A stretch of DNA of 28,275 nt from a virus (lineage: Duplodnaviria; Caudoviricetes): positions 1 to 28,275 of the IMG/VR virus record IMGVR_UViG_3300007960_000132; one strand, 5' to 3'. The notes under the pieces were generated by a model. The model made no database searches. It was given only the letters and a program-made list of their open reading frames with translations, and was not told the origin of the DNA. This document shows, one piece after another, positions 13,533-28,275 of this stretch; position 1 is the stretch's first letter, and every line of letters starts with the position of its first letter. The position numbers were made by a program, and so were the translations under genes.

Positions 13533-13810
13533 TACTTAGATCTTCTTTCAGCGAAACCTTTAAAGGCTTGTTTTTCTTCCCTTTCTATAGGCTTATCTTC
13601 AAGCCTAGCTTCTTCCTCCTGTATCCTAGATAGTATTTCAAAAGCATCGAAAATAGCTAATTTCTTGGTTGCTGCGGCGTTCTTTAACCTATCGGCAGAA
13701 ACGTCATCATCCGTATTAGTGATGATTTTCTCTTCAGCCACTTTTATAAGCTCCTCAACTGCCTTGTGCCCAGCTTGGATTATATTCCTTTTCGTTTCCT
13801 GTACGCTCAT
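13532..13810 (-). CDS. Small helical protein, candidate terminase small subunit (92 aa)
   Basis: ATG at 13810 (MSVQETKRNII) preferred over the TTG at 13822. All-helical character. Its stop overlaps the TerL start (TAATG). Function is inferred from position only. Confidence 0.5.
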   Translation of the reverse strand: MSVQETKRNIIQAGHKAVEELIKVAEEKIITNTDDDVSADRLKNAAATKKLAIFDAFEILSRIQEEEARLEDKPIEREEKQAFKGFAERRSK

Positions 13811-14363
13811 ATTTAATAGCAATATCTGAAGACGGAACTCTATACATTCTATTTCCGTCTATAATAAATTCATACTCACTCCTAGGCGTGAATCCAACAA
13901 CGTCCTCCTTGCTTAGTCCTTTACTAATAAGTAGATCATCCAAATGTTTTAAAACACCCATCAGCGGTTGTTCTTCGTTTGGCGTCCATTTTTCATTAAA
14001 TGACTTTATTGGCTTCACAAAGCAGAAACCATCTAGTGGCTTCCAATCTCCATCACGCTTAAACATGTACACTTGATCTGGAGCAACTATATATGCATCA
14101 TCACTGAAGTATGCCGCACTATTTTTTTCGTTACCTCTAACGTCGTAAAAGCGTCTAAACACGTTATGATGCACTATCACTTCATCACCTGGTTTAACAC
14201 CTGCACAACCAAGTTCTGGTATACCAATGACTATACCAACTCTATTTACATACTTATGATCTTGAAGATCAGTGCTAAGTAATAATTCCGAATCACCAAT
14301 CTTCTTAACGTTCGTTTTTCTAGACTCTTTTGGTCTTATTACGAAGTTAAATATTGATCTCAT
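13755..14363 (-). CDS. GroES-like protein with two tandem Cpn10-like domains (202 aa)
   Basis: Domain 1: MRSIFNFVIRP...VGIVIG...VKPGDEVIVH...YIVAPDQV. Domain 2: WKPLDGFCFVKP...GVLKH...GLSKEDVVGF...EFIIDGNRMYRVPSSDIA. Both follow the GroES pattern (kPL.drVlv...G.Vv.v...vk.GD.V.f...dg..y.i....dI). Confidence 0.6.
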   Translation of the reverse strand: MRSIFNFVIRPKESRKTNVKKIGDSELLLSTDLQDHKYVNRVGIVIGIPELGCAGVKPGDEVIVHHNVFRRFYDVRGNEKNSAAYFSDDAYIVAPDQVYMFKRDGDWKPLDGFCFVKPIKSFNEKWTPNEEQPLMGVLKHLDDLLISKGLSKEDVVGFTPRSEYEFIIDGNRMYRVPSSDIAIKYERTGNEKEYNPSWAQGS

Positions 14364-14593: not shown

Positions 14594-14828
14594 CTAAAAT
14601 GTATTCACCGGTTTCTAAATCCAGCGAACCATGACCATACTTTTCAACAAGCTCACCCATGACGCCGCGAAGCTCATCGGTGGTTTCCTTAAGTTGGTCC
14701 ATGTGCTCGTCAATTCTTTCCTGTAGTGAGTATTTAGCAATGTATAAACCGCCAATTTCGCTTTTCAACTTATTTTGACGAGATCTAACAGAGTCTAAAA
14801 TCTCTCTTTGTTTCTTTGTTATTTTCAT
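14577..14828 (-). CDS. Small coiled-coil protein (83 aa)
   Basis: ORF track. Heptad pattern ending in KYGHGSLDLETGEY. Start overlaps the kdsA stop. Confidence 0.7.
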   Translation of the reverse strand: MKITKKQREILDSVRSRQNKLKSEIGGLYIAKYSLQERIDEHMDQLKETTDELRGVMGELVEKYGHGSLDLETGEYILDEKSN

Positions 14829-15640
14829 TTTAAAGCTGATTTTATTTTATTTAACTTGATTAACAAATCTTCCAACTTGCTTAGTTCCAGCATGTTTGCT
14901 CCATCACTAAGTGCTTCAGATGGATTCGGGTGTGTCTCTATAAAAAGACCATCAGCTCCAGCCGCTACACTTGCTTTGGCCATAGTCTCTATTAGGTGTG
15001 GTAGACCACCAGTTACACCAGATGACGTGTTAGGTTGTTGCAGCGAGTGTGTCGCGTCGTAAACTAGAGGAGCGTAATTCTTCATTACTGGGAAACCTCT
15101 AAAGTCAACCACGAGATCAGAGGGACCAAACGTCATGCCTCTTTCCGTTATAAGCACGTTCTCATTGCCAGTTGACATGACTTTCTGAACAGCAAATTTC
15201 ATTGCTTCTGGTGAAACAAATTGTCCTTTTTTTATATTGACTATCTTCCCAGATTCACCAGCGGCTAATAGTAAATCAGTTTGCCTGCACAAAAACGCCG
15301 GTATTTGAAGTACGTCTACAAAGTCAGAAGCCATTTCAACTTCTTCAACTGAGTGAACGTCCGTCATGGTTGGAACACCTAGCGTGTAGCGGACCTCGTC
15401 TATAGCGTTTAAAGCTTCAAAGTTGCCGATACCGGTGAACGAGTCTATTCTAGATCTATTAGCCTTTTTGTAACTAGCTTTAAAAACATAAGGAATATTA
15501 TGCTTTTTACATATGCTAGAAACAACCCTGGCGATCTCTAGTGGCATTTCTTTATTCTCCACTACACATGGTCCAGCAAATAAAAATAAACCGTCCCCAG
15601 ACGTTATATTATCATAGATTGTATTTGACTCTATGTTCAT
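14825..15640 (-). CDS. kdsA: 3-deoxy-D-manno-octulosonate 8-phosphate (KDO8P) synthase (271 aa)
   Basis: Complete motif set: AGPCVVE, FKASYKKANRS, QIPAFLCRQTDLL, NIKKGQF, TERG, DATHSLQQP, GLFIETHPNP, ALSDG. Confidence 0.96.
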   Translation of the reverse strand: MNIESNTIYDNITSGDGLFLFAGPCVVENKEMPLEIARVVSSICKKHNIPYVFKASYKKANRSRIDSFTGIGNFEALNAIDEVRYTLGVPTMTDVHSVEEVEMASDFVDVLQIPAFLCRQTDLLLAAGESGKIVNIKKGQFVSPEAMKFAVQKVMSTGNENVLITERGMTFGPSDLVVDFRGFPVMKNYAPLVYDATHSLQQPNTSSGVTGGLPHLIETMAKASVAAGADGLFIETHPNPSEALSDGANMLELSKLEDLLIKLNKIKSALK

Positions 15641-15641
15641 T

Positions 15642-16226
15642 TTAAACCCAGGTTTTGTTGTTCAGTAGGACTGGTATGTCTTTGTTTCTGCAAGACTTTA
15701 TTTTTTCCGCCCACCAATCTAACTTTTTAACAGTACAGTGAGCGTTTTCACCGTTTGGTAATGTAGCTACAGCTGGCGCTAAACCAACCTTTATCAGAAC
15801 AAGCTTAGATGCCTTTGAGAATATTCGATTCAAAACGTAATCTAAATCTTCTTCGTGAATATGCTCTAATACGTCGTAGCAAAGAACAGCGTCGTAAACT
15901 CCATCTGGTAAAACGTTATATTTCTCAACAGCTGGGTCATATAAACCAATTTCAACATTAAGGTATTCATGTAGCAATCCTTTTTCGTATTGTACTCCAG
16001 ATGCGCACCCATAATCAAGCATGGAAACACATTTGTATTTATCAAGAGCTTCTTTAATATGCTCCTTGGATCTATAAGTCGGGCTTATATTTACCAAACC
16101 AGTGTAACCCTGCTCCTCATGCATGATCTTATATTGATCAATGTATTCTTGGTATTTTTTAGATGGTCCCGCCGACTGTTTTCCTTTCAATATCGTCGTG
16201 ATCCAATTCAGTCCAGTAAATTTCAT
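15642..16226 (-). CDS. Class I SAM-dependent methyltransferase
   Basis: Motif I MLDYGCASG, then LYDPAV and YDAVLCYDVLEHI. Start is uncertain: 16226 overlaps the cupin gene by 68 nt, and a later Met (MHEEQG) is possible. Confidence 0.85.
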   Translation of the reverse strand: MKFTGLNWITTILKGKQSAGPSKKYQEYIDQYKIMHEEQGYTGLVNISPTYRSKEHIKEALDKYKCVSMLDYGCASGVQYEKGLLHEYLNVEIGLYDPAVEKYNVLPDGVYDAVLCYDVLEHIHEEDLDYVLNRIFSKASKLVLIKVGLAPAVATLPNGENAHCTVKKLDWWAEKIKSCRNKDIPVLLNNKTWV

Positions 16227-16503
16227 AGCAAACGCAATCTGTTAGTGCTTCAAAAGAGTGGTATAAACCGGGTTTAACTATAGTTAGTTCACCCTTATTG
16301 ACGATGGTCTCGTCTGTTAGCTCGTAAGCCTTTTGCTCAACCTTAATCTTTAGAGTGCCAGACTCCATGTAGAAAGCGTTGAACTTATTGTTGTGTTTAT
16401 GTGTAGAACAAAAACCACCTTTGTTGATTTCTATTCTATGGATCTCGAAATTGTGCTTCTGAAATATGTCTTCAGTGAAGCCCCAAACTTTACCCTGCTT
16501 CAT
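16159..16503 (-). CDS. Cupin-domain protein, mannose-6-phosphate isomerase type II C-terminal-like (114 aa)
   Basis: KVWG, CSTHKHNNKFNAFYMESG and VKPGLYHSFEAL cupin motifs. Confidence 0.85.
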   Translation of the reverse strand: MKQGKVWGFTEDIFQKHNFEIHRIEINKGGFCSTHKHNNKFNAFYMESGTLKIKVEQKAYELTDETIVNKGELTIVKPGLYHSFEALTDCVCYEIYWTELDHDDIERKTVGGTI

Positions 16504-17408
16504 TATTTCTTTTTTCTTACTTCAATAAACCAATCCTTGTATTTTTCTCTCTTAGTGGTCATGTACTCCAAATAAGAGTCAAGTTTCTCTTTCCAGTTTT
16601 CTTCTATTTGCGGGCAAATAATACCTGACTTAGGACTGGATAAAGTCTTGTTGATCCAAGGTTCTGGATTATCTCTATGCTCAAACAGAAATTTATTGAC
16701 GTGGTAAAAAGACCCTCGCTCAACGTTATTATAAACGTCGATTGGTTCAATCTCTTTTCCAAGACACGCTGCGTACATAGCTGATTCACTAATGTGAGTA
16801 GTGTAAACCTTATCAGCTTTCTGCATGAAGTGATACATGTCTATATCCCTAGGCAATATCAACTCCTCTCCGAATTGATCTTTTATCTCACCTATTACAG
16901 TGTGAGTCGTGATCGGGTGGGGTTTAAAATATACGTTGTCGCCGTGTAGCTTTTTGATGTGGATCAACTTATTCAAACAAGTGTTTGACTTTAATTTGTT
17001 TGACCCAGGTAACACTACTAGATTATCAACCTCTCTGTACCTTGAGAAATCAGTACCTCTATCCTGGTACTTATTAGACATGTTCTTCTCAATGTTTGAT
17101 CTAAAATAAGAAGCGAAGTCAATAACTTTAGATTCATCTATATCTTTATCATCATACGCATCCATAATCTGCGTAAGTCTAAAGTCCAGATTGAGAGGGT
17201 GTATCATAAAACAAGTAGCGTATTCTGTATACGCAAATGTTCTAAAATACGGTATCTCCTGAGCTAACACATCGTAGCTAGTCTCTATGTTATACTTCTT
17301 AACTTGACGCAAGAAGTATCTTTCAACATCGCGAAGAGGGTCTAGGGCCTTACTTTTCTTTAGAGACCCTATCCTCTGCTTAGCGACGTTCTCGTTAAAC
17401 ATTTCCAT
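16503..17408 (-). CDS. Putative glycosyltransferase of the capsule-synthesis (KpsS/KpsC-like, GT-B, HP-motif) type (301 aa)
   Basis: The C-terminal half has VYFKPHP and FMQKADKVYTTHISESAMYAACLGKEI, matching the 'KxHP...ad.V.t..S..g.eAl..gKpv' pattern of CMP-sugar-using GT-B enzymes. Co-located with kdsA. Confidence 0.55.
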   Translation of the reverse strand: MEMFNENVAKQRIGSLKKSKALDPLRDVERYFLRQVKKYNIETSYDVLAQEIPYFRTFAYTEYATCFMIHPLNLDFRLTQIMDAYDDKDIDESKVIDFASYFRSNIEKNMSNKYQDRGTDFSRYREVDNLVVLPGSNKLKSNTCLNKLIHIKKLHGDNVYFKPHPITTHTVIGEIKDQFGEELILPRDIDMYHFMQKADKVYTTHISESAMYAACLGKEIEPIDVYNNVERGSFYHVNKFLFEHRDNPEPWINKTLSSPKSGIICPQIEENWKEKLDSYLEYMTTKREKYKDWFIEVRKKK

Positions 17409-17456: not shown

Positions 17457-20400
17457 TTAATAATAGAACGTTGTCTCCCAAGTAGTTGTCGTACTAAACG
17501 TGGTAGACCAAGTTGTCGTCCAAGAAGTAAGTGTTATAGTTTGAGTTTGGAAAGTCGTTGTAGTAGATGTAGATGTTTGCCAAGTGGTGGTTGTCTGTAC
17601 ACTTGTCTCCCAGGTAGTTACAGTGTTCACACTTGTTGAAGTACTAGTTGTCCATCTTGTAACAGTAACAACGCTTGTTGTCCACGTGGTTGTTGTGCTT
17701 TTAGAAGTCTGCCAAGTGGTTGTAGTACTTTTAGATGTTTCCCACGTCGTAACCCAAGTAGTGGTGGTAGATGCGCTAGTAGCGTATGTAGTCCTTGTAC
17801 TTGTTGACGTTGTCCACTTTGTAGTTGTCTCTCTAGACGTGTTCCACGTTGTTATCCAGCTAGTCGTCGTAGACGTACTTGTGTTATACGTCGTCGTTGT
17901 AGATGTTGACGTGTTAAAACTGGTCGTCGTACTATGACTAGTGTTATATGTCGTGGTTGTTGACTTAGACGTTGACGTTGATACTGTCCAAGTAGTTATC
18001 GTAATAGTAGACGTTGTCCAACTGGTTATAGTCTCTTTAGACGTTGACCAAGTTGTAGTTGTTGACTTACTTGTTGAAACGCTTGTCTGCCAAGTTGTAG
18101 TTGTGCTTTGGCTTGTACTCCACGTGGTCACCGTTGAGTGAGATGTTTCGTATGTCGTTGTCGTTTCCTTCTCGGTTGATCTACTTGTGTTGTACTTTGT
18201 TGTAGTACTATGACTCGTATTGTAGGTCGTAGTTGTCGTTGTACTTGTATTATACGTAGTAGTCGTAGACTTAGACGTGCTATGGCTAGTTACCCAAGTA
18301 GTAGTTGTACTCATACTAGTACTCCACGTGGTAACGGTTACAGTCGTTGTAGAATACGTGGTTGTAGTACTATGAGAAGTACTATGACTAGTTTGCCACG
18401 TTGTTGTAGTAGACTTGCTAGTATTATAAGACGTAACTGTCGTTGTACTTGTATTATACGTAGTGGTCGTTGATCTACTAGTGCCATGGCTTGTCTGCCA
18501 GGTTGTAGTTGTGCTCTGACTGGTGCTCCAAATAGTCACCGTTATGGTTGAGGTGGAGTATGTTGTAGTGGTGCTATGAGAAGTACTGTGACTCGTCTGC
18601 CACGTAGTTGTCGTAGAGTGGCTAGTACTATACGTTGTGGTAGTAGAGTGGTTAGTACTGTATGTCGTTGTTGTACTCCTAGACGTTCCATGACTTGTCT
18701 GCCAAGTTGTGGTCGTACTCTGGCTTGTATTCCACGTAGTAATAGTAATAGTAGACGTTGAATAAGTTGTCGTCGTGCTATGACTTGTTGAATGGCTTGT
18801 TTGCCACGTCGTAGTTGTGCTCTTACTGGTATTATACGTTGTTGTAGTAGACTTACTGGTGTTATATGTTGTTGTAGTACTATGGCTTGTACCATGGCTC
18901 GTTTGCCAAGTGGTAGTTGTGCTTTTACTTGTGTTCCATGTCGTCACAGTAATAGTAGACGTTGATCTACTAGTATTGTACGTTGTCGTTGTACTCTTGC
19001 TGGTATTATAAGTCGTGGTCGTAGTATGACTAGTACTATACGTAGTTGTAGTGGATTTAGATGTTCCGTGACTAGTCTGCCATGTTGTTGTGGTGCTCTG
19101 ACTCGTGTTCCACGTCGTTACAGTTATAGTGCTAGTACTATATGTTGTAGTTGTAGTATGACTAGTAGAATGGCTTGTTTGCCATGTTGTTGTAGTGCTC
19201 TTAGATGTATTGTAAGTAGTCGTAGTACTCTTACTTGTGTTGTAAGACGTTGTCGTTGACTTAGAAGTTCCATGGCTAGTTTGCCAAGTTGTCGTGGTAC
19301 TTTGGCTAGTATTCCAGGTTGTAACAGTTATAGTCGATGTTGATCTACTTGTATTGTAAGTCGTTGTTGTACTCTTGCTAGTATTGTACGTCGTAGTGGT
19401 TGACTTACTAGTGCTGTACGTTGTGGTTGTACTTTTAGTTGTACTCTTAGATGTGTTGTACGTAGTAGTGGTAGACTTACTTGTATTGTATGTTGTTGTA
19501 GTAGATTTACTAGTATTATAAGTTGTAGTCCATGTTGTAGTCGTACTCTTACTAGTGTTCCAAACCGTTACGGTTATAGTAGACGTAGAATACGTAGTAG
19601 TCGTTGTCTTAGATGTGCTATGACTGGTCTGCCACGTGGTCGTTGTTGAATGACTCGTGTTGTAAGTAGTGGTTGTAGACTTACTAGTTGAGTATCTAGT
19701 CGTTGTGGAATGACTAGTGTTCCAAGTTGTTCTCGTTCTAGTAGACGTAGATGCTGAGTACGTCGTGGCAACAGTAGTATTCCATGTCGTAGTAGTAGAC
19801 TTGTTCGTAGATACGCTAGTATTGAAGTAAGTGGTAAATGACGTTGTCCAAGTCGTTGTGTACGTGGTATTCCAAGCTGTGGTCGTACTAGTTTCACCAC
19901 CAGAATACTCACCGCACAAATCTAATTGTACTATATCTCTATATGCTCCACGTATCGAAACAGAACCCTTTCTTGCACAATCAACAAAGAATTCTGGCTC
20001 AGCAAGTTCGAACTCCACGTATCTTCCATCACAATCTGTGTAGCTTAGTATAACCGGTTCTCTATCTAAGATTATGTAGTATGAGTAACATTCGCCACCT
20101 GGTAAGCTAGTAGTTGTTGATATACTGGTTGCTCTAGACGTTGATCTACTCGTCGACTTACTTGTTGCTCTACTGGTTTGCCAAGTTGTAGTCCAAGTTG
20201 TTGTTGTGGACTTAGATGTTGATCTCAACGTGTTTACAACCCAAGTTGTAGTCCAAGTTGTTATCGTATCTATGGCTGTTGGATAAGTTGTTGTAGTGCT
20301 ATGGCTAGTATCCCAAGTTGTCGTTGTTGATCTACTAGTACTGTAAGTTGTTGTAGTAGATCTACTCGTATTGTAATATGTCGTCCATGTAGTAGTCGTA

Positions 20401-22562
20401 GTGTGACTCGTGTTCCACGTAGTTGTAGTCTTAGTAGCAGTCTCCCAGGTGGTCGTCGTAGACCTGTTTGTGCTATGGCTTGTCGCGTACGTTGTTGTGG
20501 TTGAGTGACTAGTACTAAACGTTGTTGTAGTACTATGAGATGTTGACCAGGTTGTAGTATATGTCGTAGTCGTACTGTGACTAGTATTGTATGTCGTAGT
20601 CGTTGAATGGCTAGTACTCCAAGTAGTGGTAGTAGAATGACTAGTGCTCCACGTCGTGGTCCAAGTGGTTGTTGTTTTGGTTGCTGTCTCCCAAGTAGTT
20701 GTCGTGGATCTGTTTGTGTTATAGTAAGTTGTCCACGAGGTCGTCGTGCTGTGCGATGTTACCCAAGTAGTAGTCGTTGAGTGACTAGTACTCCACGTTG
20801 TCGTCGTACTCCTAGTAGTATTGTAATACGTTGTATACGTGGTTGTAGTTGAGTGACTAGTGTTCCAAGTAGTTGTGGTCTTAGTAGCCGTCTCCCACGT
20901 TGTTGTAGTACTTCTATTCGTATTGTAATACGTAGTCCAAGAAGTGGTTGTAGAATGGTTTGTGTTATACGTTGTGGTAGTGGTATGCGAAGTCGACCAA
21001 GTGGTGGTTGTACTGTGGCTAGTCTGCCACGTTGTAGTCCAAGTGGTTGTAGTTTTTGTCGCCGTTTCCCACGTTGTTGTAGTGCTTCTACTTGTATTGT
21101 AATAAGTAGTATACGACGTGGTAGTACTATGACTCGTGCTAAAAGTTGTGGTTGTTGAATGACTAGTGCTCCAAGTCGTCGTTGTGGACTTAGATGTGTT
21201 ATAATACGTGGTATAGGTGGTGGTAGTACTATGGCTAGTATTCCAAGTCGTTTTAGTCTTAGTAGCAGTTTCCCAAGTCGTGGTAGTGCTTCTAGTTGTA
21301 TTATAGTACGTTGTCCAAGACGTCGTCGTCGTGTGGTTCGTACTGTATGTGGTAGTAGTACTGTGACTGGTATTATACGTTGTTGTTGTAGATTTAGTCG
21401 TATTATACGTAGTAGTATAAGTTGTTGTTGTACTATGACTAGTGTTCCACGTGGTTGTAGTTTTTGTAGCTGTTTCCCAGGTGGTTGTTGTAGATCTACT
21501 CGTGTTATAATACGTTGTCCACGAAGTGGTAGTGCTGTGAGATGTCTGCCAGGTGGTAGTAGTACTATGACTTGTCTCCCACGTGGTAGTAGTTGACTTT
21601 GACGTATTGTAGTATGTTGTATACGTTGTAGTAGTTGAATGACTAGTGTTAAACGTATAAACAGTTTTTGTAGCTGTTTCCCAGGTAGTCGTGGTTGATC
21701 TACTAGTATTATAACTAGTTGTCCATGTAGTGGTTGTTGAATGAGACGTGCTAAACGTGGTTGTCGTGCTATGGCTAGTACTGTATGTGGTAGTCGTGCT
21801 GTGACTCGTTTGCCATGTAGTCGTAAATGTAGTGGTTGTACTATGGCTAGTACTATACGTAGTATTTGTTTTTGTAGCAGTCTCCCAAGTAGTTGTGGTA
21901 CTTGTAGATGTGTTAAAGTAGCTAATCCACGAGGTCGTTGTGCTAGTTGATGTATTCCAAGACGTCGTTGTGGTTATGCTTGTCGTCCAAGAAGTCGTGG
22001 TTTTTGTGGCGGTTTCCCAATATGTCACCCACGTTGTTGTCGTACTATGACTAGTGTGGTATGTAGTTGTAGTTGACTTACTAGTAACCCAAGTAGTTGT
22101 AGTACTATGAGATGTCTCCCAGGTAGTCGTTGTAGACCTAGACGTCGATGTTGATGTGTCGAATTTTGTTATGGTAATAGTAGACGTTTGCCACTCCGTT
22201 GTAGTGGTTGTACTCGTCTCCCACGTTGTTGTTGTAGACTTAGAAGTCGACGTAGATGTATTAAACGCCGTAGTTGTTGACGTAGATGTATTAAACGTGG
22301 TTGTAGTGGAAGTGCTTGTCGACCAAGAGGTTGTTGTTTCTGCTTCGGTGTCCCAATAAGTTATCCAAGCAGTTTTAGTCTTAGTAGCCGTTTCGAAAAC
22401 AGTTGTTGTGCTAGTAGACGTATTCCAAGTGGTTGTAGTTGATTTTTGGGTATCCCAAACCGTTACAGTGTTAGAACTAGTATTCTTAGAAGTATTTCTA
22501 GATGTGTTTGTAGAAGTTGACGTGTTCCACTTGTATATTTCCCAAAAACCAAAACCAGGCAT
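17457..22562 (-). CDS. Giant Thr/Ser-rich repeat protein (1701 aa) with two reverse-complementary arms and a central 4-Cys domain; predicted long beta-hairpin fibre
   Basis: 5.1-kb open frame in a fibre-gene context. Units of the form [WYF]xTS[HKRT]STTTT. Unique domain at about residues 820-889. Confidence 0.9.
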   Translation of the reverse strand: MPGFGFWEIYKWNTSTSTNTSRNTSKNTSSNTVTVWDTQKSTTTTWNTSTSTTTVFETATKTKTAWITYWDTEAETTTSWSTSTSTTTTFNTSTSTTTAFNTSTSTSKSTTTTWETSTTTTTEWQTSTITITKFDTSTSTSRSTTTTWETSHSTTTTWVTSKSTTTTYHTSHSTTTTWVTYWETATKTTTSWTTSITTTTSWNTSTSTTTSWISYFNTSTSTTTTWETATKTNTTYSTSHSTTTTFTTTWQTSHSTTTTYSTSHSTTTTFSTSHSTTTTWTTSYNTSRSTTTTWETATKTVYTFNTSHSTTTTYTTYYNTSKSTTTTWETSHSTTTTWQTSHSTTTSWTTYYNTSRSTTTTWETATKTTTTWNTSHSTTTTYTTTYNTTKSTTTTYNTSHSTTTTYSTNHTTTTSWTTYYNTTRSTTTTWETATKTKTTWNTSHSTTTTYTTYYNTSKSTTTTWSTSHSTTTTFSTSHSTTTSYTTYYNTSRSTTTTWETATKTTTTWTTTWQTSHSTTTTWSTSHTTTTTYNTNHSTTTSWTTYYNTNRSTTTTWETATKTTTTWNTSHSTTTTYTTYYNTTRSTTTTWSTSHSTTTTWVTSHSTTTSWTTYYNTNRSTTTTWETATKTTTTWTTTWSTSHSTTTTWSTSHSTTTTYNTSHSTTTTYTTTWSTSHSTTTTFSTSHSTTTTYATSHSTNRSTTTTWETATKTTTTWNTSHTTTTTWTTYYNTSRSTTTTYSTSRSTTTTWDTSHSTTTTYPTAIDTITTWTTTWVVNTLRSTSKSTTTTWTTTWQTSRATSKSTSRSTSRATSISTTTSLPGGECYSYYIILDREPVILSYTDCDGRYVEFELAEPEFFVDCARKGSVSIRGAYRDIVQLDLCGEYSGGETSTTTAWNTTYTTTWTTSFTTYFNTSVSTNKSTTTTWNTTVATTYSASTSTRTRTTWNTSHSTTTRYSTSKSTTTTYNTSHSTTTTWQTSHSTSKTTTTTYSTSTITVTVWNTSKSTTTTWTTTYNTSKSTTTTYNTSKSTTTTYNTSKSTTKSTTTTYSTSKSTTTTYNTSKSTTTTYNTSRSTSTITVTTWNTSQSTTTTWQTSHGTSKSTTTSYNTSKSTTTTYNTSKSTTTTWQTSHSTSHTTTTTYSTSTITVTTWNTSQSTTTTWQTSHGTSKSTTTTYSTSHTTTTTYNTSKSTTTTYNTSRSTSTITVTTWNTSKSTTTTWQTSHGTSHSTTTTYNTSKSTTTTYNTSKSTTTTWQTSHSTSHSTTTTYSTSTITITTWNTSQSTTTTWQTSHGTSRSTTTTYSTNHSTTTTYSTSHSTTTTWQTSHSTSHSTTTTYSTSTITVTIWSTSQSTTTTWQTSHGTSRSTTTTYNTSTTTVTSYNTSKSTTTTWQTSHSTSHSTTTTYSTTTVTVTTWSTSMSTTTTWVTSHSTSKSTTTTYNTSTTTTTTYNTSHSTTTKYNTSRSTEKETTTTYETSHSTVTTWSTSQSTTTTWQTSVSTSKSTTTTWSTSKETITSWTTSTITITTWTVSTSTSKSTTTTYNTSHSTTTSFNTSTSTTTTYNTSTSTTTSWITTWNTSRETTTKWTTSTSTRTTYATSASTTTTWVTTWETSKSTTTTWQTSKSTTTTWTTSVVTVTRWTTSTSTSVNTVTTWETSVQTTTTWQTSTSTTTTFQTQTITLTSWTTTWSTTFSTTTTWETTFYY
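17460..19895 (-). repeat. C-terminal arm: degenerate 30-nt/42-nt coding repeats (10-aa and 14-aa units; STITVT and WQTSH[GS]TS[HKR] markers)
   Basis: About 68 units parsed by hand. Unit lengths mirror those of the N-terminal arm. Confidence 0.9.
20106..22529 (-). repeat. N-terminal arm: degenerate 30-nt/42-nt coding repeats (10-aa and 14-aa units; WETATK and [WY]TTYY markers)
   Basis: About 68 units parsed by hand from the translation, with a ~68-aa higher-order period in the middle part. Confidence 0.9.
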
Positions 22563-22571
22563 AGCTTTGTA

Positions 22572-23099
22572 TTAACCGAAGTTACCAATATAATTTACTA
22601 ACACAGTGTCTCTATCGACAACGAAGTACGACATGATTGAAACGTCGCCAGCATCTGTTTGCCAAGCTATAGAATCTCCATTTGGTGTTTTTAAATTAGA
22701 AGGTAACGCTTCTGGTGCTGTAACATCTCTGTTAACAATAATGAAAGTGCCAGATTGACCAACGTTACCTGCTTGGACAATAACATTAAGTGCCCAAGAT
22801 CCAGCTGGAGACAACAAAAAATTGTGGCCTTCGGTTAAATCTATGATGAAAGAACCATTAGGTTCTTGATTCTTAGATACTGGAGTAAAATAATCTACCG
22901 TTGTATAAAGAGACGCTAAACTAGGAATACGAGCGACATCAAACGTGCCGCTCGTTATTTTAGATGCTGACAAGTTCGGTATACGTGCCGTAGCGAATGT
23001 TCCGCTATTTATTTTAGCGGCGTCTAGACTAGGGATGTCTGAGGCCTCAAGATTGTGAGACCCCAGAACATCAATGTCACCTATGAACTTTATTGCCAT
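22572..23099 (-). CDS. Short tail-fibre-like protein / possible adaptor (175 aa)
   Basis: Two and a bit 18-aa repeats (IPSLDAAKINSGTFATAR, IPNLSASKITSGTFDVAR, IPSL) of a kind seen in phage fibre shafts, followed by a ~100-aa beta-rich C-terminal domain. Confidence 0.65.
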   Translation of the reverse strand: MAIKFIGDIDVLGSHNLEASDIPSLDAAKINSGTFATARIPNLSASKITSGTFDVARIPSLASLYTTVDYFTPVSKNQEPNGSFIIDLTEGHNFLLSPAGSWALNVIVQAGNVGQSGTFIIVNRDVTAPEALPSNLKTPNGDSIAWQTDAGDVSIMSYFVVDRDTVLVNYIGNFG

Positions 23100-23118
23100 C
23101 TTATCCTAATTTTTACTA

Positions 23119-24189
23119 TTAGGCTCTCGTACCGATAATAAGTAGATCGTATTGTACGTCAGCCACGGTTGTGAATGTGATTTCTCTTGTAGCTCTATTG
23201 TGAACAACGTCAGTATGAACAAGTATAGCTCTGTCACCATCGAGTTCGTATAGAGTCACAGAAAGAGGAAGAGTGTTATTCCAATCAGCAACGTTGTAAA
23301 CGAAAGGTTCAGCGGTACCAACTATAACTCTACTAGCGTGGTACACATCCGTGTACATCGCCAAGGTATTGTTAGACGTAGTGTAAGCCGCGGACAGTCC
23401 ATATAGAGACGCACCGGCAATCAAACCACCAGCTAAGTCTTCGATTTCATTATTTGTTCTCTGTACGGCGTTAATCGTTATAACGTCAGAAGCTTGAGAT
23501 ACGGTTACGTTATTACCAGCCTTAATTACGACATCATCGTTAACGCCGCCGCCAGCAAGTCTAATCTTAACTTGAGAAGAGTCAGCTCCAGCAACAGTTG
23601 AGATCGCGTAAGTATAGTTGTTGTACTCAGATGGTACTGGGATAACGTTCACTGAAGAGTCAGGAAGCGTGAATACCCATCTACTATCTGGACCCTCCTC
23701 TCGCAAGAACAGAGATAAGTTTCCACCTTCGCTACCGCCTCTGTTAACCTCTATACCAGCGTCCTCTCTAGCTTGTTCGTCAACCTTAACGTTAGAGTTC
23801 AACAAGATAATGTTGTCCTGAATAGCAACAGTTTCTGGAGCTGTCATGACATAATCACCCTTGATAGTGAGGTCACCATCAATGATCATTCCCGTTGTGC
23901 TTAACACACCGTTTATACTCTGATCTCCAGATGTTCTTATAACAGAGTTATCAACACTAACTGTTACTCCATCAGCGGCGACACTGATACCATCTCCAGC
24001 AATCAAACTGGATCCAACTTCATTCCAATTTGTACCATCGAAAACGTTTAACTTACCGTCGGTGGTGTTGAAATAAACATGACCTGCAGCTAAACCTGCG
24101 GGCTCGTTAACGGTGCTGAAGTTTTCAATCCTCAGCTTTTTTAGCTCTAAACCTGAAAGGTCTAGACTAGATAGATACTTAATAGCCAT
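23119..24189 (-). CDS. Fibre/spike-like structural protein (356 aa)
   Basis: Fibre-type motifs GHVYFNTTDGKLNVFDGTNW, LIAGDGISV, IQDNIILLNSN...DAGIEVNRG and KAGNNVTVSQASDVITINA. Confidence 0.7.
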   Translation of the reverse strand: MAIKYLSSLDLSGLELKKLRIENFSTVNEPAGLAAGHVYFNTTDGKLNVFDGTNWNEVGSSLIAGDGISVAADGVTVSVDNSVIRTSGDQSINGVLSTTGMIIDGDLTIKGDYVMTAPETVAIQDNIILLNSNVKVDEQAREDAGIEVNRGGSEGGNLSLFLREEGPDSRWVFTLPDSSVNVIPVPSEYNNYTYAISTVAGADSSQVKIRLAGGGVNDDVVIKAGNNVTVSQASDVITINAVQRTNNEIEDLAGGLIAGASLYGLSAAYTTSNNTLAMYTDVYHASRVIVGTAEPFVYNVADWNNTLPLSVTLYELDGDRAILVHTDVVHNRATREITFTTVADVQYDLLIIGTRA

Positions 24190-27062: not shown

Positions 27063-27499
27063 CTATCCGGATCTTTTATCATGTCATCCACCGCTTTGTT
27101 TGTGACTTTAGCGGTGTAAGTTTTGTTTTTGAAATGAACGCTCGAGCTTCCTGTAGGTATATCCTCTTCACCAAGCAATATCCTATATATTCTAAGGATC
27201 ATGTGCTTTGTTTTGTGCGAGGTTGTGTAGATCGCGTACGCTTGCGTAGTTCTGTTTCTTTCTCTCCAAACGTCGATCCAACCTTGATTTCTAAGTCTCT
27301 CCCATCTATGTTTATCCCATGAATAAGCGTAGATACCATCGATGAAATCTTTTCTAGAAAACCTGCCCAAGCAGTCTAAGTATATGAGTAACTCTAAATC
27401 AGCATCTTTTAATTCATACTGATGGCATGCCCACCTTCTAACCAATCTGTAATATTTCAGGATTTTAAAATCCCTAAGGTCGTGCGAACTGAGCCTCAT
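27059..27499 (-). CDS. Hypothetical protein, possible winged-helix DNA-binding fold (146 aa)
   Basis: LKDADLELLIYL...WERLRNQGWIDVWR...AIYTTSHKTK resembles a MarR-type wHTH pattern. ATGA overlaps at both ends. Confidence 0.55.
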   Translation of the reverse strand: MRLSSHDLRDFKILKYYRLVRRWACHQYELKDADLELLIYLDCLGRFSRKDFIDGIYAYSWDKHRWERLRNQGWIDVWRERNRTTQAYAIYTTSHKTKHMILRIYRILLGEEDIPTGSSSVHFKNKTYTAKVTNKAVDDMIKDPDR

Positions 27500-27750
27500 T
27501 CTACTATTACAATATCACTGGTTTTTATGACTTGATAAACATTACCATCAAACGTTATTTCATGCCCGGCGTGACGATCGTAGTATACTATATCACCCTC
27601 ACTTATGAAATTAGCTTGATCACCAGCAGATTGAACTTTTCCTCTTAGGTACCTTTTTTCAGAGAGTTTATCGGTGAGCTCCAACCCACCGACATTAACA
27701 TTCTCTTGTTTTAGCTTTTCTATGATTACGTAGAAGTTTACAGCTCTCAT
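27496..27750 (-). CDS. groES: Co-chaperonin GroES (84 aa)
   Basis: MRAVNFYVII...GGLEL...RGKVQSAG...ISEGDIVYYDRHAGHEITFDGNVYQVIKTSDIVIVE. Adjacent to groEL. Confidence 0.88.
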   Translation of the reverse strand: MRAVNFYVIIEKLKQENVNVGGLELTDKLSEKRYLRGKVQSAGDQANFISEGDIVYYDRHAGHEITFDGNVYQVIKTSDIVIVE

Positions 27751-28275
27751 TGTAGTCTAATATTTGATATAACAGCGTCAGCTGAGATTATTGTTGATGC
27801 AACGGACACCGCGTTTTTAAGTGCTGTTTTTGTAACTAGTAGTGGGTCAATGATACCGTTTTTTATCATGTTTACCTGTTTGCCAGTAACGACATCCATA
27901 CCGTAACCTTTTTTGAATACAGGATTCATGATAAACATATCGGCGTTGCTCATAATCGTGTTAAATGGCGCTTTAATTGCCTCTAGAAGCACTTTCTCAC
28001 CAACGGTGGACTTGTCGCTAATAAATTTATTTGAAGCCCCTAGAAGCGCTATTCCACCACCAGGTACAATACCTTCTTGTATTGCTGCTTTTACCGCGTA
28101 GATAGCATCTTCAACCCTATCCTTTTTTTCCTTTAATTCTATCTTAGAATTGGCACCAACTCGGACAATACCAACCTTACCGCTTAGCATTGCTACACGC
28201 TGTTCGATCTTTTTCTTGAAAAACGGATTATTTTCCTTTTTTAGTTTAGCTTCCGCTTGTTCTAGTCTCTCCGAC
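27747..28275 (-). CDS. groEL: Chaperonin GroEL, C-terminal part (5' end outside the window)
   Basis: The frame is open to the window edge (SERLEQAEAKLKKENNPFFKKKIEQRVAMLSG...). Motifs ELKEKKDRVEDA, EGIVPGGGIAL and GIIDPLLVTKTALKNAVSVA. Confidence 0.95.
   Translation of the reverse strand, partial: SERLEQAEAKLKKENNPFFKKKIEQRVAMLSGKVGIVRVGANSKIELKEKKDRVEDAIYAVKAAIQEGIVPGGGIALLGASNKFISDKSTVGEKVLLEAIKAPFNTIMSNADMFIMNPVFKKGYGMDVVTGKQVNMIKNGIIDPLLVTKTALKNAVSVASTIISADAVISNIRLQ

Follow-up and report, generated by a model that had tools for sequence, protein, structure and literature searches.

A mirrored, threonine-rich phage protein carries a residue-level pairing code between its two arms

What sets the register between two long arms of a phage protein that consists mostly of threonine and serine? 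The question is raised by a stretch of 28,275 nucleotides (nt) from an uncultured, aquatic virus of the Caudoviricetes (IMG/VR record IMGVR_UViG_3300007960_000132, positions 1 to 28,275; hereafter the window), which encodes a 1701-residue protein, 65% of it Thr and Ser, with a central Cys domain flanked by two repeat arms. An initial annotation of this gene had proposed a hairpin with a readable pairing code in which Tyr faces Gly, Glu faces Arg, Lys faces Glu, and Lys faces Ile/Val linkers, together with aromatic–cation and Thr–Thr matches. We find that a code exists and that the last two kinds of match hold. The code is sharper than was claimed, but most of the pairs had been chosen wrongly: it consists of His–Tyr and Gln–Trp, both of which had been missed, with Lys and Arg as wobble partners, and not of salt bridges.

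17457..22562, minus strand: threonine-rich open reading frame (ORF), 1701 amino acids (aa), 791 Thr and 311 Ser, without a Pfam, PHROG or NCBIfam family
20100..22535, minus strand: N-arm, residues 10–821, chiefly 10-residue units plus 4-residue units, with the aromatic residue at unit position 1
19896..20099, minus strand: central 68-aa domain with four Cys (825, 844, 862 and 883), sitting at the mirror centre, 855.5
17460..19895, minus strand: C-arm, residues 890–1701, chiefly 10-residue units plus 14-residue units, the mirror partner of the N-arm

Each arm has 812 residues in units of 10, 14 and 4 residues, and Thr makes up 47% of the protein. Read antiparallel, the arms match without a gap when facing residue numbers sum to 1711 (i+j=1711). 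Among 601 registers this one ranked top both for Thr:Thr (294) and for aromatic:His/Lys/Arg (110), and under a pair matrix learned on 30 other clusters of relatives it scored 454.9 bits versus 87.9 for the runner-up. All aromatic:basic pairs lie on one parity (the A-face). The other parity (the B-face) is made up of Ser, Thr, Asn, Ala and Gly, with small residues at 655 of its 812 positions in the window, and also holds 23 Glu, 15 Lys, 22 Gln and 13 Tyr. Thr occupies 508/812 positions of one parity and 282/812 of the other; the alternation that had been described as running throughout is strong, but not exclusive. As had been noted, the repeats contain a single Pro (P761); P821 stands at the border of the central domain. 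Within this register His faced Tyr at 53 of 54 positions and Trp at none, and all five A-face Gln faced Trp. Shifting the register reduced His–Tyr (to at most 27, versus 53) and raised His–Trp/Phe. We also observed that identical repeat units share codons no more often than expected at random, and that Ser at a given unit position can be AGY in one copy and TCN in another, which suggests that the repeats are very old or under selection against recombination.

To follow the code beyond the window, we used 166 loci anchored on the 301-aa gene downstream of the ORF. Of these, 31 lacked a Thr-rich ORF of at least 250 aa, 18 duplicated other loci and 52 consisted of fragments or lone genes; the remaining 65 could be registered. 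In 60 of 65 two-gene pairs, Thr:Thr counts by themselves led to the register that aromatic:basic pairing gave. By hand we removed L030, L102, L106, L148 and L158, weak self-matches that were single genes of pairs or had low scores. The final set comprised 63 ladders, which fall into 31 clusters including that of the window. The inclusion rule treats Trp, Tyr and Phe alike and ignores Gln, and therefore does not bias tests of the code. Across the 30 clusters other than the window's, His on the A-face met Tyr at 385 of 393 rungs, where within-locus shuffling predicts 137, and met Trp once and Phe twice; Gln on that face met Trp at 436 of 439, and Lys and Arg met all three aromatics. Exceptions were absent from 16 of the 19 clusters with His–aromatic rungs and from 20 of the 22 with Gln–aromatic rungs. 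With repeated contexts removed and geometry conditioned, the forbidden combinations were nearly empty: His–Trp 1 versus 126.8 expected, Gln–Tyr 1 versus 53, and Gln–Phe 1 versus 50.4. His3–Tyr3 metal sites were considered and are not favoured, because 11 of the 30 clusters have no His–aromatic rung at all. As a separate observation, in seven ladders (L024, L042, L043, L053, L072, L077 and L086) A-face Glu lies mostly at sum −2 from Tyr, and is found opposite Phe at that sum in 0 cases versus 6.1 expected; a lateral Tyr–Glu rule in these ladders is possible.

The code is also maintained by compensatory change. Across 15 disjoint pairs of close relatives we counted 355 changed aromatic rungs, a single one of which was in a code-breaking state. 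Swaps of one aromatic for another occurred as double changes in 33/33 cases at His/Gln rungs versus 25/97 elsewhere, and the common single changes at aromatic rungs go via Lys or Arg. Rungs evolve through neutral intermediates, like RNA stems, with Lys and Arg probably serving as cation–π partners to all three aromatics, akin to G–U in RNA.

Most relatives split the protein into two genes, and several of these pairs have equal net gaps in their two chains (for example, 24+10, 36 and 62). L005 (860 aa) and L088 (1683 aa, with a different unit order) retain both the single-chain design and the four-Cys pattern of the central domain, and L019 turns without a Cys domain; in a quick tree of the neighbour gene, the single-chain forms with a Cys tip form one clade. 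L088 (L088:4872-9920) shows recurrent 2-residue shifts in both arms (WxSY-like 4-mers versus 16-mers; sums 1691, 1689 and 1687), which suggests a second, bulged type of junction. Several first chains of two-gene pairs (L006:1909-5187, L013, L015 and L020) have a non-repetitive end domain that closes with a GILTHN-like motif, possibly similar to that of Hint domains.

Natural length variants, found by aligning contigs of independent sequencing runs to the gene, change both arms by equal amounts at mirrored places.

21301..21504, minus strand: strain A N-arm gap, 204 nt (68 aa, about residues 354–421), runs X11 and X12
18559..18762, minus strand: strain A C-arm gap, 204 nt (68 aa, about residues 1268–1335), runs X10 and X12, overlapping the mirror of the N-arm gap
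20737..21726, minus strand: strain B N-arm gap, 990 nt (330 aa, about residues 280–609), runs X14, X16 and X21
18282..19271, minus strand: strain B C-arm gap, 990 nt (330 aa, residues 1098–1427), mirror offset of 4 residues, spanning all five C-arm Gly that face Tyr

Both joints of strain A were present in run X12, on separate contigs. In strain B a single contig of 8193 nt carries both joints in X14 and likewise in X16, two runs of the same study, and the N-arm joint recurs in X21 (another study); its arm comprises 482 rungs. The rungs re-paired by the gaps (22 in strain A and 4 in strain B) remain in code. Among the codon changes listed, 53 of 62 were synonymous (220 and 359 further entries lie beyond these), and three stand opposite an aromatic: at Trp rungs Lys took the place of Gln in one case and Gln that of Lys in another, and at a Tyr rung Arg took the place of His. 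Codon identity of the 68-aa blocks with their neighbours is 0.28–0.53, versus 0.37 for random; the copies are therefore old, and the short forms more likely represent losses than the long form represents gains. X14 and X16 also contain lower-depth contigs from further Thr-rich relatives, which match the gene over short stretches, so that one sample contains several such phages.

How do the pairs named by the initial annotation fare against this code? All are found in the sequence at i+j=1711, and its proposed comparison with shifted registers (600 shifts) bears out the register itself, Thr:Thr and aromatic:basic pairing, and fails for Glu/Asp with Lys/Arg; Gly–Tyr is borderline once unit geometry is taken into account. 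The rows concerned are the following.

18483..19271, minus strand: five C-arm Gly (1360, 1292, 1224, 1166 and 1098), facing Tyr at sum 1711
20724..21512, minus strand: their N-arm Tyr partners (613, 545, 487, 419 and 351), opposite the C-arm Gly
22338..22340, minus strand: E75, opposite R1636 (17655–17657); one event, no rule
22164..22166, minus strand: K133, opposite E1578 (17829–17831); one event, no rule

G1098, G1166, G1224, G1292 and G1360 face Y613, Y545, Y487, Y419 and Y351, in each case the first Tyr of a TTYY (5/5), and among the 600 shifted registers this was equalled by +1 alone, which brings in the second Tyr. Position 6 of the C-arm 14-mer always stands opposite the last residue of an N-arm 4-mer, which is Tyr at 12 of 19 such junctions, and given this unit geometry the association in the window is borderline (Fisher p=0.068). 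In the relatives, Gly–Tyr is enriched at junctions (counts 41/146/72/677; Cochran–Mantel–Haenszel odds ratio 5.5, p=6e-8; 4.1 without L013), in 13 of 15 informative clusters, but at the 187 Gly junctions of the 30 other clusters Gly stands opposite Tyr at 41, Ser at 61 and Thr at 56. With flanking letters fixed, the excess at sum 1711 nearly disappears (27 versus 22.3 expected). The five pairs of the window are copies within one block, not the five independent supports they had been taken for: strain A has lost one Gly together with its Tyr, and strain B, which lacks the block, has lost all five, leaving Tyr613 opposite Ser. Gly–Tyr is a real yet soft preference, secondary to the code.

The two salt bridges had been offered as a rule. 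Glu75–Arg1636 and Lys133–Glu1578 are present, but two such Glu/Asp:Lys/Arg pairs or more occur in 141 of 600 shifted registers, and direct pairs in the 30 other clusters are at chance (B-face 2/230, with 1.6 expected; A-face 0/82). Diagonal acid–base pairs at −2 are enriched (11/230 versus 1.6, in 9 clusters). The opposition of Lys and Ile/Val linkers is conspicuous in the window, where [WF]ETATK units stand opposite an Ile/Val-containing linker in 10/10 cases versus 3/52 for other N-arm 10-mers (p=2.7e-9), and 8 of the 10 stand opposite W[NS]TS[QKM]. The contact is two residues off, as the Lys meets Ile or Val in 2/10 cases at sum 1711 and in 10/10 at sum 1709. Nor is it a general rule: B-face Lys of the relatives meets Ile/Val in 2/76 cases directly and in 3/76 at −2 (3.5 expected), and the pairing is lineage-specific.

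Such offsets bear on how the backbones would pair. With unit geometry conditioned and repeated contexts removed, cross-strand covariation on the B-face gave z of 45.7, 39.1, 6.3, 1.2 and 0.6 at offsets −4, −2, 0, +2 and +4 from 1711, and 31.2, 29.6, 4.3, 1.0 and 0.8 with flanking letters fixed. The B-face peak fell at −2 or −4 in 25 of 31 clusters, and co-change odds in 14 close pairs (3.7, 3.16 and 2.37 versus a background of 1.7–2.1) agree with these offsets. A-face covariation peaked at 0 (z 177, next 16 at −2), so that −2 is the offset common to both faces. In a toy backbone fit, the near diagonal of the twisted setting falls at +2 on the face that is hydrogen-bonded and at −2 on the opposite face, with a rise of 2.76 Å, and a designed hairpin has its lateral pair at 4–9 and a diagonal at 2–9 (PMC9268152). 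Because of the covariation offsets, the twisted toy backbone and the likeness to the designed hairpin, the backbone register is likely 1709, with the coded pairs at 1711 being diagonal and the small-residue face packing at 1709 and 1707.

The B-face Tyr residues can be read in the same way. The 13 internal ones of the window have Ser at 1709 in 13/13 cases, Gln at 1707 in 11/13 and Gly at 1711 in 5/13, and at the same offsets the 136 B-face Tyr of the relatives have Ser in 105, Gln or Gly in 79 and Gly in 41. The partners of the 13 at sums 1707–1713 are Ser, Gly, Ala, Gln and Thr, with no Asp or Glu, and the five Gly themselves face Thr at sum 1709. These Gly are probably not the lateral partner that a mortise/tenon motif requires. 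Their description as directly opposite Tyr at 1711 probably misses the true register by two residues, and this speaks against aromatic rescue of glycine, in its textbook form, in this protein.

What structure would account for the reverse match of the arms, for a code kept up by compensatory change and for length changes of equal size in both arms? We think it probable that the protein folds back at the Cys domain to form one strongly twisted, two-stranded antiparallel β-ribbon, a virion fibre in which the residue code runs between the arms. The chain would zip out to the tip domain and back, and the irregular order of 10-, 14- and 4-residue units and of Trp, Tyr and Phe would favour one register strongly over slipped ones. 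In the hydrogen-bond register i+j=1709, each A-face aromatic would be lateral to Thr and its coded partner at 1711 would be the near diagonal, while the Ser/Thr/Asn face would pack at 1709 and 1707; Tyr on that face would lie over Ser (1709) and Gln or Gly (1707), with Gly at 1711 giving merely extra room. Judged by the pattern, exclusivity probably arises because the rings form hydrogen bonds, Tyr through its OH with His and Trp through its NH with Gln, and because of size, with Phe pairing only with cations. At 2.76–3.4 Å per rung, the predicted fibre length is 225–275 nm. From gene order alone we infer a long virion fibre that would present the Cys domain at its tip.

Several observations weigh against this structure or against the breadth of its support. 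The virion location is read from gene order alone; single-sequence AlphaFold2 of residues 700–1011 gave no long hairpin (predicted local distance difference test, pLDDT, 34); the toy backbone made good hydrogen bonds in 2 of 6 phi/psi settings, one of them the twisted one; and covariation cannot show whether contacts lie inside a single ribbon or join symmetric copies. Five two-gene pairs and L088 were left out of the ladder set, as their Thr:Thr and aromatic:basic registers disagree, and L088 needs nine 2-residue shifts in order to mirror and contains two Phe–Gln rungs. One pair of 72% identity supplied 20 of the 58 double changes, and the clusters share ancestry (neighbour-gene identity 51–97%), so the counts overstate independence.

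Could the mirror itself be spurious, produced by low sequence complexity, by a recent tandem duplication, by symmetry of the DNA or by the assembly? A protein so rich in Thr and Ser invites this suspicion, shifts of 34 and 68 residues retain much of the unit geometry, and the five Gly–Tyr rungs are indeed copies. However, the gene contains no exact DNA repeats of at least 45 nt, the codon identity of its repeat units (0.23–0.49) is near the random value of 0.38, and its DNA has neither reverse-complement nor mirror symmetry, on which grounds DNA symmetry and recent tandem duplication were rejected. His–Tyr pairing is lost at shifted registers, equal-length losses from both arms recur in independent runs, and relatives with other unit orders mirror as well. 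The artefact explanation is largely refuted, and we give it hardly any credence.

At 800 rungs, a two-stranded ribbon on its own would lack stiffness, which counts in favour of two to four hairpins in register forming a narrow β-barrel or tube (six strands in a trimer) with Ser/Thr/Asn inside; 1709 and 1707 would then be two strand interfaces, and His–Tyr and Gln–Trp might be contacts between chains. The equal strength of the two small-face offsets and the small residues at 655/812 positions of that face suit such a tube, phage fibres are usually oligomeric, and six antiparallel strands make up the T4 gp37 needle (PMC9659904). Against this, the 23 Glu, 15 Lys, 22 Gln and 13 Tyr of that face would be hard to bury three-fold in a narrow barrel, and one twisted ribbon is enough to predict both offsets, signs included; we regard the tube as unlikely, though a serious contender. 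The picture of the initial annotation, a regular ribbon with its backbone register at 1711, set by lateral aromatic rescue of Gly by Tyr and by lateral Glu–Arg and Lys–Glu salt bridges, would draw on the strongest coupling and the Thr:Thr maximum, both at 1711, on the Gly–Tyr enrichment there (in both orientations in L088), and on the barrel motif in which Tyr over a hydrogen-bonded Gly defines register (bioRxiv 2020.10.22.346965). It is quite improbable in our view: small-face coupling is weak at 1711 compared with 1709 and 1707, conditioning on flanking letters removes most of the Gly–Tyr excess, the salt bridges are at chance level, and strain B has none of these Gly.

The genome around the ORF agrees with a role in the virion. 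The terminase, portal and capsid genes of the window are closest to podophages of Flavobacterium, Cellulophaga and Maribacter. A promoter and terminator scan found signals at chance level only. No Pfam or PDB family was found for the tip domain (PDB, E≤10; atlas matches all below 0.8), and arm residues 521–640 had no PDB sequence match (E≤1). On the minus strand at 13755–14363 and 27496–28275 we observed two GroES-like genes and a partial GroEL-like gene in this podovirus-like genome, the first GroES-like gene called by PHROG match and the remaining genes by eye. The nearer neighbours of the ORF are as follows.

22572..24189, minus strand: two genes upstream of the ORF, with weak matches to minor tail and virion structural PHROGs
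16503..17408, minus strand: 301-aa neighbour gene, phrog_26179, a PF05159 Capsule_synth look-alike (atlas 0.95)
14825..16503, minus strand: cupin, methyltransferase and Kdo-8-phosphate synthase (KdsA) genes downstream of the 301-aa gene, KdsA scoring above the curated cut-off

A Thr-rich ORF lies upstream of the 301-aa gene in 50 of 50 homologs that have 700 nt of upstream DNA. The neighbour itself had no PDB match below E 0.06, and Pfam gave a faint sialyltransferase match in 4 of 60 members. Judged by gene content, window positions 14825–17408 (minus strand) may be a phage sugar-modification cassette directly behind the fibre gene, and the linked Capsule_synth-like transferase could possibly glycosylate the fibre.

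A candidate miniature occurs in a cultured podophage, Caulobacter phage Lullwater, where the same gene order is seen: a Thr-rich gene of 215 aa comes after the tail fibre and before a distant homolog of the neighbour. The termini of Lullwater gp41 (L170:6321-6968, NC_047860) pair at 26.5 bits under the learned matrix, a score reached by 0/200 shuffles, and residues 15–53 pair with 214–176 through F:R, Y:R, Q:W and K:Y. The Lullwater relatives failed the same pairing test (ERS 17/200, BL198 11/200 and Quill, as annotated, 74/200 shuffles), and a mirror scan of the short Thr-rich neighbours Cr30 gp254, L011, L017 and L023 gave no clear signal. In Quill gp41 (L171:1201-1841) the annotated ORF stops at 184 aa while the similarity to Lullwater gp41 continues in a second piece, which suggests a frameshift or sequence error. 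Threonine is not mentioned in the parts of PMC11053796 available to us.

Pairing between β-strands usually follows weak preferences; here two side-chain pairs are near-exclusive over thousands of natural rungs. For design, the rules proposed initially change accordingly: salt bridges and Lys–Ile/Val are dropped, and Gly–Tyr becomes secondary. If the structure holds, it would be a new type of phage fibre and would supply rules from nature for programming how β-ribbons align and how long they are (protein 'hybridisation', nanometre rulers, orthogonal zippers), along with a large body of natural data for comparing lateral with diagonal contacts across strands. The full picture, on which our judgement is evenly balanced, would be of a natural protein duplex with exclusive His=Tyr and Gln=Trp pairs, Lys/Arg wobble and a Thr spacer, read diagonally, forming hairpins or zippers of 150–280 nm whose length is tuned by matched deletions and whose register is programmable, possibly sugar-coated and with a miniature in Caulobacter podophages. 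A literature search found no description of this architecture or code, most subscription papers and supplements lying outside its coverage.

Three known systems invite comparison. The T4 gp37 needle carries HxH iron sites, which have no counterpart here, as the 1701 aa contain no HxH motif, and no sequence relation to solved fibre tips was found for residues 521–640 (PDB, E≤1) or the tip (PDB, E≤10), or in Pfam and PHROG. Like the protein described here, the needle belongs to a phage fibre with extended antiparallel strands whose chain runs out to a head domain and back, but it is short, a trimer with six strands confined to the final 215 residues (PMC9659904), whereas here each arm has about 812 residues and a mirror code. 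The Tyr–Gly mortise/tenon of β-barrels, proposed to define register, likewise sets Tyr beside a cross-strand Gly; according to bioRxiv 2020.10.22.346965, its Gly is the hydrogen-bonded lateral partner and its Tyr also bonds an acidic residue, while in this protein Gly opposite Tyr is in the minority and dispensable, and the constant partner of Tyr is Ser at 1709, with no Asp or Glu. Designed β-hairpins share diagonal cation–π and ion pairs, brought about by right-handed twist, and Thr as a strand former; those described in PMC9268152 are twelve-residue model peptides with preferences of 0.1–1 kcal/mol, whereas the pairs here are near-exclusive over hundreds of rungs and evolve by compensatory change.

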